Source: a virus
Lineage: Duplodnaviria; Caudoviricetes
Virus record (IMG/VR): IMGVR_UViG_3300017978_000526
Location: 1-33,747 of that record
DNA: 33,747 nt
Reading direction: 5' to 3' (one strand)
Part shown: piece after piece, positions 11,152 through 17,736 of the stretch
How positions within the stretch are numbered: the stretch's first letter is position 1
How the letters are laid out: each line of letters starts with the position of its first letter
Translations under genes and position numbers: made by a program
Notes under the pieces: model-generated
What the model was told of the DNA's origin: nothing
Seen by the model: the letters and a program-made list of their open reading frames with translations, nothing else
The model's database searches: none

Positions 11152-12749
11152 GGCGTGGGAGGGTTGGGGATGTTGTCAAAAAACGAATGCACCAGGGCGA
11201 ATGTCTCGCGGTTCTCTTTCGCGTGATCGTGCTCCTCGGGATTCATGATCGTGGTGATGGTCTCCGGCGTTTCCCATAACTCATAGTAACGCGTGGGCAC
11301 TTCCAGCCCGCCGGGCTTGCCCTTCTCGAATCCATACTCGCGGCCCGCGTAGAGGTCCCACCACTTATCCCGGCGATATCCGCCGATGAGGGTATCCCCC
11401 GCAGTGCGTGCGGCGTAGTGATCGGCAATCGCCTGGCGATACGCCTTGGCAGCCTCGCCCCGGGAACTCATGTGAGCCCAGTGCATCAATTCATGCGACA
11501 ACACGCGGCGCAGCTCGCGGCGGCGTGCTTCGCCCTTCACGCCCTTGAATCCGAGCGTGGCAGTAGTCACGCGGGCCGTGTGAGTGCGCGGATCATAGTC
11601 GCCATTTGCTCCGCCGATTTCATGGTCCACAATCTTGATGGTCACCTTGGGCAGGCTCTCGGCCATCGCCCGGGGCATGATGCCCAGGAGATCGGAAACA
11701 ATCCGGCGGATCTCTTTTTCCGTGAGGGCTCCACGGCTACGGGCCCCGATGATTTTCTCCACCTTTTCAGATTCCTTCACGGGATCGGCCACGCGCAGGG
11801 ATGCCTTGAGATTGGCAATGTCCTTGCGGTCCCACTTATCCTTGGTGTCCAGGCGCAGGGCAGAGATGGCAGCGGCAAACGTATCCGGCCTGGTCACCCC
11901 TGGCAGTCGCGGGCCTTGCGTCGGGGCGGCTCCGTTGAAATAACTCAGCAGGTCCCGGCCACTCTCGATTTCCATGTTGGATGCCCATGCCTGGAAGTCT
12001 GCGGCGGTGGTCGGGTCCCAGCGTTTTTTGATCTCCTCATAGGGCAAGCTCGCATCGCGTGCGGACCATTCATAAGTGCCTCCCCGCTCCTTGGGTGTGC
12101 GCACATCCACATTGGTAGAGAGCCCGCGATTGAGAGATCCGGTTTCGAGTTGTTTGAGGTTCGGCCCTTCCAGCACGCGGCGGTTTTCCGGCGCGCGGGG
12201 TTGATCTTTTGCATACTCCTCATCGCGCTCCTCTTCCGTCATCTCCACCACCTGGCAGCGGCAATTCCATTCCCATGGCGGAGTGTGCTTTTGCCAAAAT
12301 GGATGATTGGCCGGAAGGATGATCTCATTGAGGGCACGATGGCTGGCGCGGACCTTGCCATCCTTGGTGCTGAGGTATTGGCGAAAAGGGAACACATCCG
12401 CCATCTCATCCATGATGCGGGCCTGGGTGGCCGAGTAAGCGGCAAACGCATGATGAGAGAGCAAGAGCTGCGCACGCGCTGCGGCAGCCTCCGGCGTAAA
12501 CCATGGGGAAATCTTGGCCATCACCTCGCCCTTCACCTCATCCCAATCCGCACCGGCAGGAATCTTCGCGATCTCATCCCGCACGCCCTTGAGCACATCG
12601 TGATCCTCAATGCCGGTGATGGTAAACGCACGGGATTTGAGTTCATCGGGCAGCTGGTCAAACACATCACGCGCCACCGCTGGCTTGTCTGCAATCGCGC
12701 GGCGAGCGGTATCATGAGGGACGGGGCGAGTGACGTAGGCGGGCTGCAT
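11148..12749 (-). CDS. MuF (gp30-like) minor head protein with C-terminal HExxH metallopeptidase-like domain
   Basis: RAFTITG, DGKVRASHRAL, HPFWQKHTPPWEWNCRCQV; C-terminal VLSHELMHWAH. Confidence 0.88.
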   Translation of the reverse strand: MQPAYVTRPVPHDTARRAIADKPAVARDVFDQLPDELKSRAFTITGIEDHDVLKGVRDEIAKIPAGADWDEVKGEVMAKISPWFTPEAAAARAQLLLSHHAFAAYSATQARIMDEMADVFPFRQYLSTKDGKVRASHRALNEIILPANHPFWQKHTPPWEWNCRCQVVEMTEEERDEEYAKDQPRAPENRRVLEGPNLKQLETGSLNRGLSTNVDVRTPKERGGTYEWSARDASLPYEEIKKRWDPTTAADFQAWASNMEIESGRDLLSYFNGAAPTQGPRLPGVTRPDTFAAAISALRLDTKDKWDRKDIANLKASLRVADPVKESEKVEKIIGARSRGALTEKEIRRIVSDLLGIMPRAMAESLPKVTIKIVDHEIGGANGDYDPRTHTARVTTATLGFKGVKGEARRRELRRVLSHELMHWAHMSSRGEAAKAYRQAIADHYAARTAGDTLIGGYRRDKWWDLYAGREYGFEKGKPGGLEVPTRYYELWETPETITTIMNPEEHDHAKENRETFALVHSFFDNIPNPPTP

Positions 12750-12751
12750 GG

Positions 12752-12899
12752 CTAGGCGAGTTTGCGGAATGGGGTGATGATATCAGATTGCTGCATGGCT
12801 CTATCAAGCGGGCTTTGCACAGTATTGGAGCCTGCGGTGTGCAAGTAAAGCGCGGTGGTCTCGATGCTCGTGTGTCCCATTTGCTCTTGGATCACTTTG
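12752..12899 (-). pseudogene. C-terminal 48 aa remnant of an integron-integrase-like tyrosine recombinase
   Basis: KVIQEQMGHTSIETTALYLHTAGSNTVQSPLD resembles the IntI end TVQELLGHSDVSTTMIYTHV...VRSPLD; truncated exactly at a G|TT. Confidence 0.75.
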
Positions 12900-13201
12900 T
12901 TCTGCCGAGGATCGAGCGCCCACTCTGGTTTGAAGGATCGACCGTCCACATACTCGCGGAGGTTTTTCGCCCGGATCATGCGATAAACACACCCGCAGTT
13001 TGAGTATTCGGCGTAGTCGTTGGCTTCGTTTTGGAGGATGGCGTTTTGCGCTCGGGTGCAGTGATCCCAGCGCGGATTGGAGACGATTTTCCACCGTTCC
13101 CCGTCGCGGAGTTTCGTCACAATCACCCGGAAGAATGGCAGAACAAGTCGCTCCTGAGCAACCGCGCCCGCCGTGTTATTTGAGTCTGATTTTGATTTCA
13201 T
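12752..13201 (-). CDS. Cassette 1 protein fused in frame to the integrase remnant
   Basis: ATG 13201 lies in the attC1 loop; codon 101 is the crossover AAC. Confidence 0.6.
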   Translation of the reverse strand: MKSKSDSNNTAGAVAQERLVLPFFRVIVTKLRDGERWKIVSNPRWDHCTRAQNAILQNEANDYAEYSNCGCVYRMIRAKNLREYVDGRSFKPEWALDPRQNKVIQEQMGHTSIETTALYLHTAGSNTVQSPLDRAMQQSDIITPFRKLA

Positions 13202-13258
13202 AGATTTGTGAGTTGCGGCACGCGCTCTCGGCGCGGTGCCAGAGCTAGGCGTTAGCCG
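13137..13258 (+). repeat. attC-type site 1
   Basis: GGCAGAAC-AAGTC-GCTC[C]TG[A]GCA[A]CCGCGCC...GGCGCGGTGCCAGAGC-TAGGC-GTTAGCCG; 3 extrahelical bases. Confidence 0.88.
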
Positions 13259-13532
13259 GAGAATGAGCAGGGCACTTGCCTCCCCATGCTTTCGCGCCGG
13301 GATGCGACGAGTGAGAGCACTTGTAGGCGTTGTTCCAGTGGTCCCAGACGGGTGTGCATCCGTCCTCGCGGGGGACAGGTTCCCAGCGTCGGTGACAGCA
13401 GCGGCACTCGGCCCACGTTCCACCGTCAGCGTATTTCCCGCGCTCCAGATCGTGACCCGACCACCAGCACCGAAGACGGCTAACAAGGCGTGGCTGGAGC
13501 AACGCGGCCCCGGTGTGTGTTTGATTATCCAT
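13245..13532 (-). CDS. Cassette 2 Cys/His-rich small protein
   Basis: 95 aa with CWWSGH and CRCCH; starts in attC2 and stops in attC1. Confidence 0.65.
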   Translation of the reverse strand: MDNQTHTGAALLQPRLVSRLRCWWSGHDLERGKYADGGTWAECRCCHRRWEPVPREDGCTPVWDHWNNAYKCSHSSHPGAKAWGGKCPAHSPANA

Positions 13533-13603
13533 GGTAGTTACTGAGGTTTGAGAGTGGTTGGAGTGGCGCTCTCGCCGCGTGCCAGCACATCGGCGTTCGG
13601 TGG
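13477..13603 (+). repeat. attC-type site 2
   Basis: CGGCTAAC-AAGGC-GTG[G]CTGG[AG]CA[A]CGCGGC...GCCGCGTGCCAGCAC-ATCGGC-GTTCGGTGG. Confidence 0.88.
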
Positions 13604-13918
13604 ATTAAATTCGCGGCCACACAGCATGCACTTGCCACGATCCGCATACCGCAGGTGATCGTCCGGCGTGCAGTATGGACCACATTCGGTTCCCACTGCC
13701 CTCTGTTGCGCTTCCGTAAGCGGATGGCGCTCCGTTGGTTTCGCTTGCCGCCAGAGACGGCATTCAGTGGCGCACCCATCGTCGCAGATGTGCATAGGGT
13801 TGTTTTTGCAGGGTGTTGGCTTGTGATACGGCTGATATTCATCCGGCGAATCGTGCCACTCGTAAGCGCCCGGTTCATCGACTCCATCATCTAGCTCTAT
13901 TCCGTTTACGATTCTCAT
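13538..13918 (-). CDS. Cassette 3 second gene, Cys-rich hypothetical protein
   Basis: Start revised to ATG 13918 (ATGA overlap); ends NADVLARGESATPTTLKPQ inside attC2. Confidence 0.65.
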   Translation of the reverse strand: MRIVNGIELDDGVDEPGAYEWHDSPDEYQPYHKPTPCKNNPMHICDDGCATECRLWRQAKPTERHPLTEAQQRAVGTECGPYCTPDDHLRYADRGKCMLCGREFNPPNADVLARGESATPTTLKPQ

Positions 13919-14163
13919 GGTTTTGGTTGGTATTTGAGTCCTTTCAGCGCAAGCCCGAAGCGGGCGCGTATGATTTTTCCGCAGCGGTGGCAGGCGCATT
14001 CCACACCTTCATCCGTGCGCGTCATCAGTGATTTTCCATTGCGGTCGCACGGATACACTGCGTGACCGACTAGTCCGCACACGAACCACCGAACAAGACA
14101 GTGGACAGGAATCACCATGAGCGGTGATGTCCTGCGTGATTGACTGGCCGTGTCCTCGCTCAT
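13915..14163 (-). CDS. Cassette 3 first gene, Zn-ribbon-like protein
   Basis: CGLVGH...CHRCGK; starts in attC3. Confidence 0.6.
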   Translation of the reverse strand: MSEDTASQSRRTSPLMVIPVHCLVRWFVCGLVGHAVYPCDRNGKSLMTRTDEGVECACHRCGKIIRARFGLALKGLKYQPKP

Positions 14164-14191
14164 GGTGATCCGTCACTTTTTGCGTTCAGCC
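14086..14191 (+). repeat. attC-type site 3
   Basis: CCACCGAAC-AAGAC-AGTG[G]AC[A]GGA[A]TCACCATGAGCG...CGCTCATGGTGATCCGTCACT-TTTTGC-GTTCAGCC. Confidence 0.92.
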
Positions 14192-14702
14192 GAGAGATTT
14201 GATACAGCGCCATGAGCGCCGCCCCGAGCGGGGAGAAGTATTGGAGATCATAGACCGCAACCCCGAGTCCTTCATTCCACGTCGTTGGGGCGTCATTGGA
14301 TAGCAGCACCACGCCAGCGTCTTCGCCTTCGGTGACGATGACTTTTTCCATGGCATCCCCGATTTTCTGGAGTCGTGCCTCCAGTCGGTCGATGTCGTTT
14401 TTCAGTCGTTCCCGATGACAAATAAGATGGCGGATTTGCTCATCGCGAGCCGCGATTTTTTGTTCGGGCGTTTCCGTTTGTGCAAGATTATTGGTGATAT
14501 CCTGCCAATAAGCATTCAGCACGCAGCCCGTGGCTTGAGCGTTGTTGTCGTAGTGGAGTTCCACTTCGGAGGATGACCAGATTGGATCATCTCCATCCCG
14601 GTCGATTTGGAGCGTGACAGGGATCTGGTGCGGGATTTGCCCGCATTCGAGCGCGTACTCGATGGCGCGATCTAATTCTTCTTTAAGTTGTTGCAGGTCC
14701 AT
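14160..14702 (-). CDS. Cassette 4 hypothetical protein
   Basis: 180 aa; ends NAKSDGSP inside attC3. Confidence 0.7.
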   Translation of the reverse strand: MDLQQLKEELDRAIEYALECGQIPHQIPVTLQIDRDGDDPIWSSSEVELHYDNNAQATGCVLNAYWQDITNNLAQTETPEQKIAARDEQIRHLICHRERLKNDIDRLEARLQKIGDAMEKVIVTEGEDAGVVLLSNDAPTTWNEGLGVAVYDLQYFSPLGAALMALYQISRLNAKSDGSP

Positions 14703-15007
14703 GGTTGGCTTATTTTATCGTTCTGCCGAGAGAATCTATACCATCCTCGGGCGTTGTATTGGTTGGTTCGATGTTCGAGATACCCCTTCTGGCAGAGCGC
14801 CCTGAAATAGTTCATGGCGGCATTTTGCGAAGAGCTTCCAAGGAATTCTTGCAGCTCGTAGCTTGATGGCAGCCGATCTTCGGCCTCATGGAATTTCTTC
14901 AGGAACTCCATCACCGCAACTTGCTTGCCCGTCAAAAGAGGCTGAACAAGACGGTGGACGGAATCGCCCATCTGCGGGCTGTCAGCGGTTGTTGGTGGCA
15001 GTGGCAT
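14672..15007 (-). CDS. Stand-alone LexA-type winged-helix DNA-binding protein
   Basis: LTGKQVAVMEFL...LPSSYELQEFLGSSSQNAAMNYFRALCQKGYLE resembles the LexA N-domain; no peptidase domain. Confidence 0.75.
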   Translation of the reverse strand: MPLPPTTADSPQMGDSVHRLVQPLLTGKQVAVMEFLKKFHEAEDRLPSSYELQEFLGSSSQNAAMNYFRALCQKGYLEHRTNQYNARGWYRFSRQNDKISQPWTCNNLKKN

Positions 15008-15062
15008 TATCGTGTCGGTTGAGTGTTAGTGCCGGGCGATCCGTCACCTTGGACGTTGAGTG
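14940..15062 (+). repeat. attC-type site 4
   Basis: GGCTGAAC-AAGAC-GGTG[G]ACGGA[A]TCGCCC...GGGCGATCCGTCACC-TTGGAC-GTTGAGTG. Confidence 0.9.
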
Positions 15063-15087
15063 GACCGAAAACGGCCCTTTTAAAAAA

Positions 15088-15139
15088 TACGCACGTTTGC
15101 GTAAATAGTTGTTGACCTTTACGCAGTATTGCGTAAGTT
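15088..15139 (+). promoter_or_regulatory. Cassette 5 promoter with two palindromic operators
   Basis: TTGACC (15112)-16 bp-TAAGTT (15134); TACGCA-N4-TGCGTA at 15088-15103 and 15120-15135. Confidence 0.7.
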
Positions 15140-15183
15140 GTCCTCGTCAGCGGCAATGAGGCCAACGACCAACTACTAAGACA

Positions 15184-15375
15184 ATGACCACTACCACCAT
15201 CACCACCTCCGCCACCCTCTTCGACGCCCAAGGCTACATCCAGCAGCACGGCGTTGAGATCAGCGACCACGGCGACACCATCGGCATCAACGGCAGCGAG
15301 CACCTCAAGTCTGACCTCATCATTGAGGACAACAAGATCACCTCCACCCTCGCTGGTTGGGAACTCACTTGGTAA
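15184..15375 (+). CDS. Cassette 5 small hypothetical protein
   Basis: 63 aa with strong C-ending codon bias, downstream of the promoter. Confidence 0.65.
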   Translation: MTTTTITTSATLFDAQGYIQQHGVEISDHGDTIGINGSEHLKSDLIIEDNKITSTLAGWELTW

Positions 15376-15378
15376 GCC

Positions 15379-15612
15379 ATGAGAGTGACGACCAACCACA
15401 GCGCGTCGTCCTACGGGCAGCCCGTCATCCTCGCGGATGACGGGTCGCTTATGGACTACGCCCCAGGGATCAAGGCCATCCGCTCCAAGCTCGGCTGGAG
15501 CACTCAGCAGCTGGCCGACGCGTGCGGCGTCTCCCGTCGCACCGTCGAGGGCTGGGAGCAAGACCGGACGCCCACAGCGGCGGCTCTCAACGTCATGGCC
15601 TCGCTCGTCTAG
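15379..15612 (+). CDS. XRE/Cro-type HTH protein
   Basis: IKAIRSKLGWSTQQLADACGVSRRTVEGWEQDRTP. Confidence 0.85.
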   Translation: MRVTTNHSASSYGQPVILADDGSLMDYAPGIKAIRSKLGWSTQQLADACGVSRRTVEGWEQDRTPTAAALNVMASLV

Positions 15613-15620
15613 CAAAAAGA

Positions 15621-15725
15621 CACTCAACAAGGCACGGCAGGACAACCGCCATGAGCGGTCAAGTCCTCCGTGCTTTTTTACGTCCAGTGCGCTCATGTCG
15701 GTGTCTGCGTTTTATCGTTCGGTGG
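15621..15725 (+). repeat. attC-type site 5
   Basis: CACTCAAC-AAGGC-ACG[G]CAG[G]ACA[A]CCGCCATGAGCG...CGCTCATGTCGGTGTCTGCGT-TTTATC-GTTCGGTGG. Confidence 0.88.
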
Positions 15726-15947
15726 ATTTATTTTCTCCATCACGGTGCCGTTGCATCCGGTCCATCCGCACGCGGTCGGCAGTTCATCTCGGGGGAACTC
15801 GGCCATATCGCGGCAGGTGTCGCATTGAGCAATCACCACCGAACCAGCCGTGGGATGCAACCGATCCTCGGCTTCTCTTTCGCGCATATCGTCCACAATG
15901 CTTTCCATCTGGTTTGACCATTTCTCGGTGTCTCGGCGCGTGCTCAT
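15693..15947 (-). CDS. Cassette 6 small Zn-binding-like protein
   Basis: CDTC...CGWTGC; ATGA overlaps at both ends, inside attC5 and attC6. Confidence 0.6.
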   Translation of the reverse strand: MSTRRDTEKWSNQMESIVDDMREREAEDRLHPTAGSVVIAQCDTCRDMAEFPRDELPTACGWTGCNGTVMEKINPPNDKTQTPT

Positions 15948-15990
15948 TTGCTTTCCTTTCTCATCGGTGCATCCACATCAGCGTTCGGAG
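15836..15990 (+). repeat. attC-type site 6
   Basis: CCACCGAAC-CAGCC-GTG[G]GATGCA[A]CCGAT...ATCGGTGCATCCAC-ATCAGC-GTTCGGAG. Confidence 0.85.
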
Positions 15991-16225
15991 GAATTGGCGC
16001 TTCGAAGTGCGGGCAGATCACAGCGGCCTTGAGCGGCATCACAGCGTTTCGATGGAGGAAGATCGTCATGTCCACTACTTGGGGCGCTCGCTCGCGTGGG
16101 TAGCGGCAGCGGACCGTTGCGGTCAGGTGCGTCATGTATTCCGCGTGGTGGCGGCATTGCAGGCACGAAGACGGAGAACAAGGGGCTGATGCCCGACCCT
16201 CAATAGCTGTGCTGTTAATTTCCAA
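15944..16225 (-). CDS. Cassette 7 Cys-rich protein (start possibly disrupted)
   Basis: CLQCRH...CPHFE; TTG start lies at a rearrangement junction. Confidence 0.5.
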   Translation of the reverse strand: MEINSTAIEGRASAPCSPSSCLQCRHHAEYMTHLTATVRCRYPRERAPQVVDMTIFLHRNAVMPLKAAVICPHFEAPIPPNADVDAPMRKESK

Positions 16226-16341
16226 GGCGTGGCTGGAGCAACGCGGCCCCGGTGTGTGTTTGACTATCCATGGTAGTTACTGAGGTTTGAGAGTGGTTGG
16301 AGTGGCGCTCTCGCCGCGTGCCAGCACATCGGCGTTAGCCT
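16172..16341 (+). repeat. Composite attC-type site 7 containing a 114 bp copy of attC2
   Basis: Orphan left arm CGGAGAAC-AAGGG..., then 16223-16336 equals 13484-13597 with one mismatch. Confidence 0.8.
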
Positions 16342-16909
16342 GACTGGATTTAAGCATCCGGCGCACGACCTTGCAGATGGTCATGGGCAGTTTCTCGCCA
16401 CTGTCCATCATTGGCCTTCCATCGGCCATGACGATTTCCACCAGGTGCTTTCCGTCGTCGCATTTGCGGACGCTCCACGTTTTGATTTTGTCGGCCAGTT
16501 CCTCGAACAGCCGGATTGCGCAGTGGAGATTCTCGGATCGTCCGTAGCACACGCGTTTGATTTGATAGGACACCACCGGGCGGAAGTCATCGGCGGTTGC
16601 ATCGGCGGGCAGTCCGTATTGTTTGCGGATCTCGCGCGCCCAGTTCTCCCACATCTGCGGCCACAGCGATTCCTTCTTTTTCCGGGAGTTGAGCAGGCGG
16701 ACCATGGATTCGGTTCGCTCGCGTTCACGGGGCGAATCGTAGGGCGTGCCGAATCGCTCGAATTGCACTCCATTGAAGCACAGGACGATGAAGTCGGCGG
16801 ATTTCTCACCGAGCAATTCGGTGAGTTCGTAGTCGATTGGGTTTCCGGAGATGGTGAGTTCAGGTTCCATTTTTTCGGGCGTTTGGGGTAATTCGGGCAA
16901 GGCTAACAT
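16277..16909 (-). CDS. Cassette 8 hypothetical protein
   Basis: 210 aa; ends NADVLARGESATPTTLKPQ. Confidence 0.7.
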   Translation of the reverse strand: MLALPELPQTPEKMEPELTISGNPIDYELTELLGEKSADFIVLCFNGVQFERFGTPYDSPRERERTESMVRLLNSRKKKESLWPQMWENWAREIRKQYGLPADATADDFRPVVSYQIKRVCYGRSENLHCAIRLFEELADKIKTWSVRKCDDGKHLVEIVMADGRPMMDSGEKLPMTICKVVRRMLKSSQANADVLARGESATPTTLKPQ

Positions 16910-16920
16910 GGTGTTATGAT

Positions 16921-17127
16921 TTACCGAATCGAAATCCTCACCTCCACCGCAGTGGGCACCCGTCCATTCACCGTCGCACCTTCCACGTGCTTCGCGGCGA
17001 TGCGCAATGCCTGGGCGAGATCCGGGGCCACGAGGCTCCCATTCATAGGCAGGGTGGTGGTGGCGATGGCGTCCTTGTGGATGAGCTTGATCCGCAGGCG
17101 GTGCGTAGGGCTTGGTTCTTTTGGCAT
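16921..17127 (-). CDS. Hypothetical protein
   Basis: 68 aa in the early operon. Confidence 0.5.
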   Translation of the reverse strand: MPKEPSPTHRLRIKLIHKDAIATTTLPMNGSLVAPDLAQALRIAAKHVEGATVNGRVPTAVEVRISIR

Positions 17128-17139
17128 GGCTGGTTCTTT

Positions 17140-17168
17140 CTGATAACTGATAACTGATAACTGATAAC
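17140..17168. repeat. Heptamer tandem repeat (CTGATAA)x4
   Basis: Read directly; intergenic. Confidence 0.9.
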
Positions 17169-17172
17169 CGGC

Positions 17173-17736
17173 TTACCTCTCCCAGGGCTCCCGGTAGGGC
17201 AGGCCCACGAACTCGAAAACATCGCGCTCATCGGTCACCTGGTGCACCGCTCCATTCGGGCCGGAGAATCCGGCACCGTAGGGATTCCAGCGCCAGCCCT
17301 TATCCACGGCGGCTTTGGCGATGCGCATGTTGGACTCCTTGGAGCCGGTGCGGCAAACGAGGTAGTTATACCAGGAGCTTTCCACCGTGGCGAAAAAATC
17401 CACCGGCATCCCCGTGGGCAGATGGGTCATGAGTTTGTTTTTGGGGCCGCAGGCAGTGTGGCCGGTTTCCCCTTTGCGGAGTTCGAGCGTGCCGGCATCC
17501 ATCATCTCGCGGATGGCAAGGTCCACCAGATCCACCATTTTTTTCCCGAACATGTCGCCGGGGATTTGGCGCTCCTCGCGGATGGGAATGTATAAAATCT
17601 CGATGTCCCCCACCTCTTGTTTCCGGCGGCGCAAAGAGCCTGCCACGATCACGCGCTCGCAGCCCTCGCCGATTGCCTCCAGGCATTCGCGGCAGACTTT
17701 GAGTGCCAGGGCACGGGGATATCGGGTCTTGCTCAT
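17173..17736 (-). CDS. Minimal family X DNA polymerase (Pol beta-like nucleotidyltransferase)
   Basis: VAGSLRRRKQEVGDIEIL, VDFF, TGSKESN, DERDVFEFVGLPYREPWER. Confidence 0.88.
   Translation of the reverse strand: MSKTRYPRALALKVCRECLEAIGEGCERVIVAGSLRRRKQEVGDIEILYIPIREERQIPGDMFGKKMVDLVDLAIREMMDAGTLELRKGETGHTACGPKNKLMTHLPTGMPVDFFATVESSWYNYLVCRTGSKESNMRIAKAAVDKGWRWNPYGAGFSGPNGAVHQVTDERDVFEFVGLPYREPWER

Follow-up and report, generated by a model that had tools for sequence, protein, structure and literature searches.

The stretch of DNA analysed here, referred to as the window, is the whole 33.7-kb contig of a Mu-like phage (IMG/VR virus record IMGVR_UViG_3300017978_000526, positions 1 to 33,747), in which an integron array of attC recombination sites and gene cassettes occupies 12899-16915. 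We put the probability at about 0.8 that this array is a phage integron that is read backward, with coding G/TT junctions at its crossover points, whose cassettes were shuffled by the integron integrase (IntI) as bottom-strand cassettes and would be transcribed in one piece towards intI. This reading is carried by the anatomy of the sites, the lock of the reading frame at the crossover, the placement of the stop codons, the variation of the protein tails, the mobility of blocks with ends at G/TT, and the intact intI motif of relatives.

Coding junctions in the array of the window

Six full attC sites (S1 to S3 and S5 to S7, Table 1) were found with our own scanner for attC geometry (AAC, 5 nt, and an 8-nt L'' box with an extra base, then a 7-nt L' box, 5-6 nt, and GTT), and in all of them the plus strand is the top strand. 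At the same threshold the rest of the 33.7-kb window contains no full site outside the array, and in 200 dinucleotide-shuffled versions of the array the mean number of sites was 0.025 (maximum 1). Of 9 pairings tested between an R'' flank and the start of the cassette on the left of the site, 7 extend 5-6 nt beyond TT/AA (5 nt in the case of S1 with C1); the two that do not are C8 and C5 alone.

An earlier reading, made from the sequence alone, had proposed that protein-coding attC sites within 12899..16336 join antisense cassette genes in frame at an invariant Asn codon, at nine GTT junctions. The G of the junctions stands at 12899, 13251, 13595, 14184, 14720, 15055, 15717, 15983, and 16334, and the junction peptides are, in that order, QN-KVI, AN-A-stop, PN-ADV, LN-AKS, QN-DKI, LN-VQG, PN-DKT, PN-ADV, and AN-ADV. 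At all nine GTT junctions the complementary AAC is indeed read as Asn in the frame with the longest minus-strand open run. In ordinary minus-strand genes of the same phage AAC is in frame in 72 of 171 cases (0.42), which gives p values of about 0.001 to 0.0004 for eight or nine consecutive in-frame triplets. Other parts of the proposal had to be amended: six of the junctions belong to full sites, 14720 and 16334 to half-sites, and 12899 is a join into intI, while the array continues to 16915. The genes do lie on the minus strand, opposite to the attC orientation, except that cassette C6 carries two plus-strand genes. Their start inside the own attC also has two exceptions, as the gene beginning at 14702 follows a half-site and the one beginning at 13918 is joined by ATGA to the gene before it. 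Going from C8 to gpF, the gaps between a stop and the next start are -4, -4, -1, -31, -4, -4, +5, +43, and +2 nt.

Two further candidates were rejected. A tenth junction at 16214 (IN-STA) was dropped because a contig from a sequencing run places this GTT in the loop of C8's own site, and the 5-nt spacer of S1 was first taken for damage, but the same arm type occurs in another contig and N-A-stop tails are common, so that it is taken as a family trait.

The minus-strand open reading frame (ORF) behind LN-VQG had been counted among the cassette genes and is withdrawn here. Among the differences listed for C6, 7 of 11 fall on third positions of a plus-strand gene, which are first positions of the minus-strand ORF; the 229-codon minus frame is thus a shadow in codon register with the two plus-strand genes. 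A promoter of C6 noticed by eye did not pass the promoter scan. A miniature cassette with the start and end of C6 and a body of about 40 nt occurs in a sequencing-run contig. By eye, the helix-turn-helix (HTH) protein of C6 may have its operators in two palindromes, 15088-15103 and 15119-15137; the former was also scored as terminator-like on both strands.

[quoted passage not shown] As in a CALIN of two or more sites, its six full sites have the same orientation, R''-L''...L'-R' geometry and an extrahelical base, and its TT-to-G unit moves between contexts. Beside the array, the last 48 codons alone remain of intI, and attI is absent, as C1 joins directly into intI and an attI-like box is seen in relatives only. 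Canonical cassettes are lacking since the genes lie on the bottom strand without a stop, C6 alone having top-strand genes, and the window does not have the organisation of a Treponema-type reverse integron. A scan of 12700-17200 found no consensus promoter, including the cassette promoter Pc, where the consensus may not be that of the host and the Pc region is deleted. Families of reverse transcriptases or transposases, as expected of a group IIC-attC intron or another inserted element, were not found among the ORFs of the array. An Rfam search of 12500-17500 gave no match, and terminator-like hits are at chance level (8 versus 5.0). Among the sequencing runs listed for the window there was no RNA run with a usable share.

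Frame lock, tails, and mobility in other loci

One attC pattern delivered 53 viral loci, 48 of which have sites, with 136 unique crossovers. To score the frame, the longest open frame was taken in the gene body from a point 9 nt outside the site. Over the 122 scored junctions (14 of the 136 were unscored) the frames at G/TT are 102/12/8, where frame 0 has AAC in frame, and frame 0 is the majority in 34 of the 40 scored viral loci. The sequence-only reading had suggested comparing the frame at G/TT with that at R'' in a larger sample; at R'' the viral frames are mixed (35/56/31), and the lock thus exists at G/TT only. Furthermore, R'' matches the start of its own cassette perfectly in 58 of 84 cases in viral arrays, versus 4 of 84 for the neighbour.

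The same pattern was applied to cellular DNA as a control (86 loci, 42 with sites, 124 sites; some of the loci are probably prophages and seven have short flanks). Cellular sites are mostly associated with sense genes (longer sense run 73 versus 25), and as they are of the same family they fix the strand assignment of the viral sites. A frame-0 antisense run open over at least 50 codons was observed at 109 of 136 viral and 38 of 124 cellular sites (Fisher 3e-16, with sites that are not independent); since the viral loci include related phages, such p values overstate independence. Of 135 viral sites, 132 contain the frame-0 stop (90 and 67 contain the stop of the other frames), compared with 73 of 122 cellular sites. 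In frame 0 an ATGA overlap of stop and start is present in 42 of 111 viral cases, and the next start lies within -11..+12 nt of the stop in 75 of 111 (24 and 19 in the other frames). Only the locked frame is enriched in stops inside the site and in stop/start overlaps. The arrays of L004, L016, L026, L034, and L041 hold very short attC sites (46-54 nt, about 50 nt), with tails such as NRQDQERQ.

A second suggestion, that homologues of one cassette protein should carry different tails after the Asn, holds for C10. Inspection by eye puts Asn in the junction column of 19 of its 24 homologues, compared with 16 for a strict script, and 5 lack it. Their tails are nearly all different, even for proteins that are 93% and 96% identical (ND and NVESIHPEPKH). 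In the window itself, 13484-13597 and 16223-16336 are 99% identical over 114 nt, so the identical tail reported earlier for two unrelated proteins is real, although it is probably the neighbour's tail in one protein and the cassette's own in the other.

Moreover, the cassettes are mobile. The stretch 14182-15055, around half-site S4, matches a sequencing-run contig with zero differences, where its left neighbour is another attC arm and its right neighbour other DNA, and it thus moves as one block. The core of S2 is also present with other flanks in sequencing-run contigs, and that of S3 is 97% identical in L014 and L053, with unrelated flanks there. Among 13,530 site pairs, the left body and core were shared next to a different right neighbour in 5, the right body alone in 4, and the core with the right body in 0, which identifies an ordinary cassette as the moving unit.

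Several observations show that minus-strand genes are real. In the viral loci, 16 of 100 backward ORFs match Pfam families, among them 8 methyltransferases and some HTH proteins (a few of the ORFs are phage genes from the flanks, e.g., RecT), and 84 of 100 have no family match. This cargo of methyltransferases and HTH regulators suggests a shufflable accessory module in the relatives. In C3b, 10 of the 13 best supported differences listed against a sequencing-run contig fall on third codon positions. It was also observed that the RecT genes at L014:3290-4024 and L045:4052-4822 end at an attC with in-frame Asn, so that core genes at the edge use the same tail system, and that a small HTH gene ending in R-K-S/G-x-N recurs with different tails (L023:5291-5524, L036:2265-2465, L051:2257-2445, and L151), one of which is supplied by attI. 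From the comparison of loci, it is well supported that the backward layout is widespread in phages, as far as sequences can tell.

The integrase remnant and the features of the array

The intI remnant best matches the NCBIfam model TIGR02249 for integron integrases (model 281-314 of 315, E 5.9e-6, below the whole-protein cut-off). It aligns with the C-termini of full phage IntIs, and its place and direction with respect to the attC top strand are the canonical ones. Searches with the remnant returned distant integrases only. In 8 distinct viral loci the array is followed closely, downstream on the coding strand, by a gene for a full IntI (318-336 amino acids). Ahead of intI, an ORF runs through an attI-like box at Asn and ends 2-38 nt short of intI; it is the longest upstream ORF in 6 of the loci and a shorter one in the other 2. 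In this way attI supplies tails such as NSDYPEQLSR and NSPIKES. Because attI gives a tail and intI comes last in these intact loci, the array is laid out to be read towards the integrase. Among 15 intI loci, intI is opposite to the attC top strand in 12 of the 12 with sites, as is the remnant of the window.

At 12899 the Asn of the window stands at a column that has Ile or Val in relatives (IntI alignment). Contigs of two runs from two studies match the window from 12500 or 12700 to 12899 and then continue with AT after the G, which reads as an intact integrase motif in the 30 nt compared beyond the join; the two contigs are of equal length, and so may be one phage. Secondary sites of IntI with the motif GWT have been reported (10.1101/2022.09.11.507474). 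As GAT fits GWT, the integrase likely deleted its own attI together with the 5' part of intI. Looking for relatives via the PolX-like gene gave one locus, which has no array, and via gpF none.

Another rearrangement concerns C8 and C10. S8 starts with TTC/CA and S9 ends with TAA/CA. In a sequencing-run contig C8's own site continues after TTC with CATGG, and in near relatives TTC stands before 16907, the same short word as in C8's site. A sequencing-run contig matches 16165-16224 and continues with ATG in the frame of C8 and a right arm that pairs with L''. It is probable from these ends that a C10 circle opened at R'' (AA/C) and entered at the short word, splitting the start of C8 from its frame. 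The shared tail of C10 is then likely from its own site, given an insertion through R''. The insertion target does not fit GWT, and two independent deletions at the same 2-nt overlap are the alternative to a circle.

The coordinates of all features are given in Table 1. C4 is a chimera, since its homologues share its C-terminal half only, and a sequencing-run contig begins at G/TT at about 14502, inside C4, beside another attC arm. The loss of inner sites seems to be how cassettes with several genes arise. By eye, the boundary of C3b and C3a (13915-13975) resembles a worn attC right arm without GTT, with a tail-like end and an ATGA overlap. At 14699, one run has C>T, by which the S4 tail ends in an ATGA overlap with C4; the tail in the window is 10 codons longer. 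Family searches gave no match for C2, and an atlas look-up of C10 gave only a weak Phage_ABA_S/NinX lead.

Table 1. Features of the array, in window coordinates (nt, nucleotides; aa, amino acids)
Feature	Position	Strand	Remarks
intI remnant, last 48 codons	12752..12898	-	ends 2 nt before Mu gpF-like gene
G/TT join of C1 to intI interior	12899..12901	+	GAT (GWT-type secondary site) in near relatives
C1 ORF, 149 aa	12752..13201	-	starts in S1; fused in frame at Asn to intI remnant
attC S1, 112 nt, extra base C	13142..13253	+	gives C2 tail N-A-stop and C1 start
C2 ORF, 95 aa, Cys/His-rich	13245..13532	-	starts in S2
attC S2, 116 nt	13482..13597	+	gives 19-aa tail NADVLARGESATPTTLKPQ and C2 start
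Cassette C3	13538..14163	-	two genes joined by ATGA: C3b (14163-13915, starts in S3) and C3a (13918-13538)
attC S3, 95 nt	14092..14186	+	tail NAKSDGSP; ATGA overlap with C3b start
C4 ORF, 180 aa, chimera of two modules	14160..14702	-	homologues cover 32-64%
Half-site S4, right arm and G/TT only	14703..14722	+	without AAC/L'' partner
C5 ORF, 111 aa, LexA-type DNA-binding domain	14672..15007	-	starts in S5; PF01726 E 9.6e-7, above cut-off
attC S5, 113 nt	14945..15057	+	R'' flank pairs with start at 14185, not 14721
Cassette C6	15056..15717	+	genes 15184-15375 and 15379-15612 (HTH_3, PF01381 E 1.6e-7), behind palindromic AT-rich stretch
C6 minus frame, open shadow, 229 codons	15696-15007	-	LN-VQG ORF, antisense to two plus genes
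attC S6, 94 nt	15626..15719	+	tail NDKTQTPT with ATGA overlap
C7 ORF, 84 aa	15693..15947	-	starts in S7
attC S7, 144 nt	15842..15985	+	tail NADVDAPMRKESK with ATGA overlap
C8 ORF, 93 aa from TTG	15944..16225	-	own attC reduced to left arm (AAC at 16177)
Site S8	16223..16336	+	S2 core copy without R'' box; half-site
C10 ORF, 210 aa	16277..16909	-	24 homologues, most start at Met 16870
S9	16901..16915	+	C10 R'' box GGCTAAC joined directly to phage sequence; reciprocal to S8 left end

The array stands at the end of a minus-strand gene run, between early-type genes (PolX-like, Lar-like, and Gam) and gpF. Phage genes on the minus strand include gpF, gpT, protease I, Gp36, Gam, and a MuB-like ATPase, and the small PolX-like gene at 17173-17736, which has the thumb and palm of DNA polymerase beta, is among the early-type genes. 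Of the distinct cellular loci listed for the same attC pattern, 33 of 79 are Verrucomicrobia by their titles, which is a weak hint on the host.

Mechanism, competing explanations, and known systems

From the arrangement described above we infer transcription of the array, translation through the sites and its coupling, catalysis by IntI, and an order of events. IntI likely shuffled the cassettes as ordinary bottom-strand cassettes, and a single phage transcript likely runs through the array towards intI. The right arm of each attC would encode a short tail and a stop that serve the gene in the right-hand cassette, and the loop and left arm would hold the start and first codons of the own gene, while the frequent ATGA overlap is predicted to couple translation. 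With such a layout, reshuffling of the cassettes would likely leave the operon translatable. In intact relatives, attI would supply the tail of the newest cassette, with intI as the last gene. In the window phage, a cassette joined at GAT inside intI, likely through the integrase itself, at the expense of attI and the larger part of intI. By now the array is likely frozen, or else relies on an integrase of the host, and its two half-sites are signs of decay.

Some observations weigh against this picture. In the window two couplings are loose (-31 and +43 nt) and one of the nine ORFs is a shadow. The viral loci all come from a single attC pattern and include related phages, and 20 of their 122 scored junctions are out of frame. 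The earlier idea that any cassette can stand beside any other goes further than these 20 junctions and the 14 of 136 that were unscored allow. The attI tail motif is absent in 7 other intI loci (4 cellular and 3 metagenomic). In 89 site pairs the core is the one shared part, an observation for which bottom-strand shuffling by itself does not account; identity drops to background just outside R'', and the leader frame is the same in 19 of 27 core-only pairs, where one core family is enriched by the search pattern. It is normal in chromosomal integrons that unrelated genes have sites in common. Unlike in such plain site sharing, the shared viral core carries the start codon. Finally, the bottom-strand folding advantage is mostly lost (viral mean -0.2 versus -2.75 kcal/mol), and the top-strand GC skew of the viral sites is positive, unlike that of mobile-integron sites as described in PMC5027507, so that strand use may be looser than assumed.

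An unlikely explanation of the frame lock is a filter instead of a design, in which cassettes or bare cores land at GWT sites of phage genes in any frame, in-frame joins alone survive since the gene is spared, the tails are neutral, and reshuffling is rare. The core phage genes RecT and DnaA_C also end in frame at an attC, the join into intI in the window is in frame at a secondary site, and many tails have only 2-3 residues, which would agree with a filter. Survival alone does not, however, give 132 of 135 stops inside the site, 42 of 111 ATGA overlaps, or an attI that ends the first gene before intI, and the same gene is met with many neighbours. Considerably less probable is that the strands have been swapped, with minus as the true top strand, sense genes, and the AAC end as the point of exchange. 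The positive GC skew, the weak folding bias, the shared cores with breakpoints at the AAC end, and S8/S9, which resemble a join at AA/C, would agree with this. Against it, the extra base and the 5/6-nt spacers match cellular sites of the same family that have sense genes, intI is in the canonical place for plus as the top strand, the left body is shared with the core whereas core and right body are shared in no pair, and the frame is locked at GTT, not at AAC. Least probable of all, and largely refuted by the domain and substitution data, is that the minus-strand ORFs are mere shadows of noncoding or sense cassettes (compare spurious attC-derived ORFs) and that the Asn is an artefact of frame choice. 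C6 behaves in this way, and most cassette ORFs lack a family match (84 of 100), but the scoring of frames began in the gene body, 9 nt from the site, the minus strand carries Pfam domains, C3b has a third-position bias, and a conserved 180-amino acid family ends at the Asn.

Beyond the backward-read integron itself, we tentatively raise the possibility that attC cores are portable start/stop modules that can be joined at both R boxes, by which phage integrons would make new cassettes. Where a gene has an in-frame GWT near its end, a bottom-strand join there would add a tail (as for intI here, and RecT in two relatives), and a top-strand join at R'' would add a leader, as S8/S9 suggest and the 89 core-only pairs would require. 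The core-only pairs and the lost folding advantage underlie this idea, together with the figures for top-strand recombination, which is given as 1000-10,000 times rarer for mobile-integron sites (PMC5027507). If true, cassette minting would be a testable DNA-only route for the open question of the origin of gene cassettes.

No description of a backward, frame-locked layout was found in the open-access literature (subscription papers were outside the search), in line with the sequence-only reading, which knew of none. A small precedent is ORF-11 of attI1, which crosses the crossover point, takes its stop from the first cassette, and couples translation, as reported in PMC8876359. ORF-11 is a small sense leader at one site, whereas the phage form involves antisense cargo genes at every site in a fixed frame. 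Engineered attC hairpins that encode a peptide and still recombine were presented by Nivina et al. 2020 (PMC7439510); the phage coding attC sites are in contrast natural, widespread, and used for tails and leaders, and thus offer natural templates for protein-coding attC sites so far only engineered.

Clusters of attC sites in phage genomes without a working integrase were described by Qi et al. 2023 (PMC9892861), whose sites recombined with attI1 on the bottom strand. These phage integrons and CALINs are similar in that respect, but are presented as typical arrays; the text available of that paper does not contain "antisense" or "in-frame", and its supplement maps could show such a layout. 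Secondary insertion at attG sites (Loot et al., 10.1101/2022.09.11.507474) resembles the join at 12899, which replaces GAT and fits GWT, except that the phage join targets the intI of the element itself and attI is lost. In the Treponema reverse integrons (PMC4909258, PMC4889954), intI and the cassette genes also point one way; there it is intI that is inverted with respect to attC, with genes that stay in sense, whereas in the phage intI is canonical and the genes are inverted.

With class 1 and sedentary chromosomal integrons, the phage arrays share the attC geometry, the G/TT crossover, the R''/R' complementarity per cassette, and an intI that lies left of the array and on the other strand than the attC top strand. 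They differ in that the genes are antisense to attC, have no stop of their own, start inside the site, and are read towards intI; Pc is not needed in the model, and the copy in the window is without attI and most of intI. The layout would explain a large class of small phage hypothetical proteins with N-A/D/V tails. In known integrons the cassettes face away from the integrase and attC is a noncoding obstacle for the ribosome. The phage form would reverse both, as its attC serves as stop, spacer, and start between genes and its crossover triplet is a codon, so that recombination rewrites the ends of proteins.

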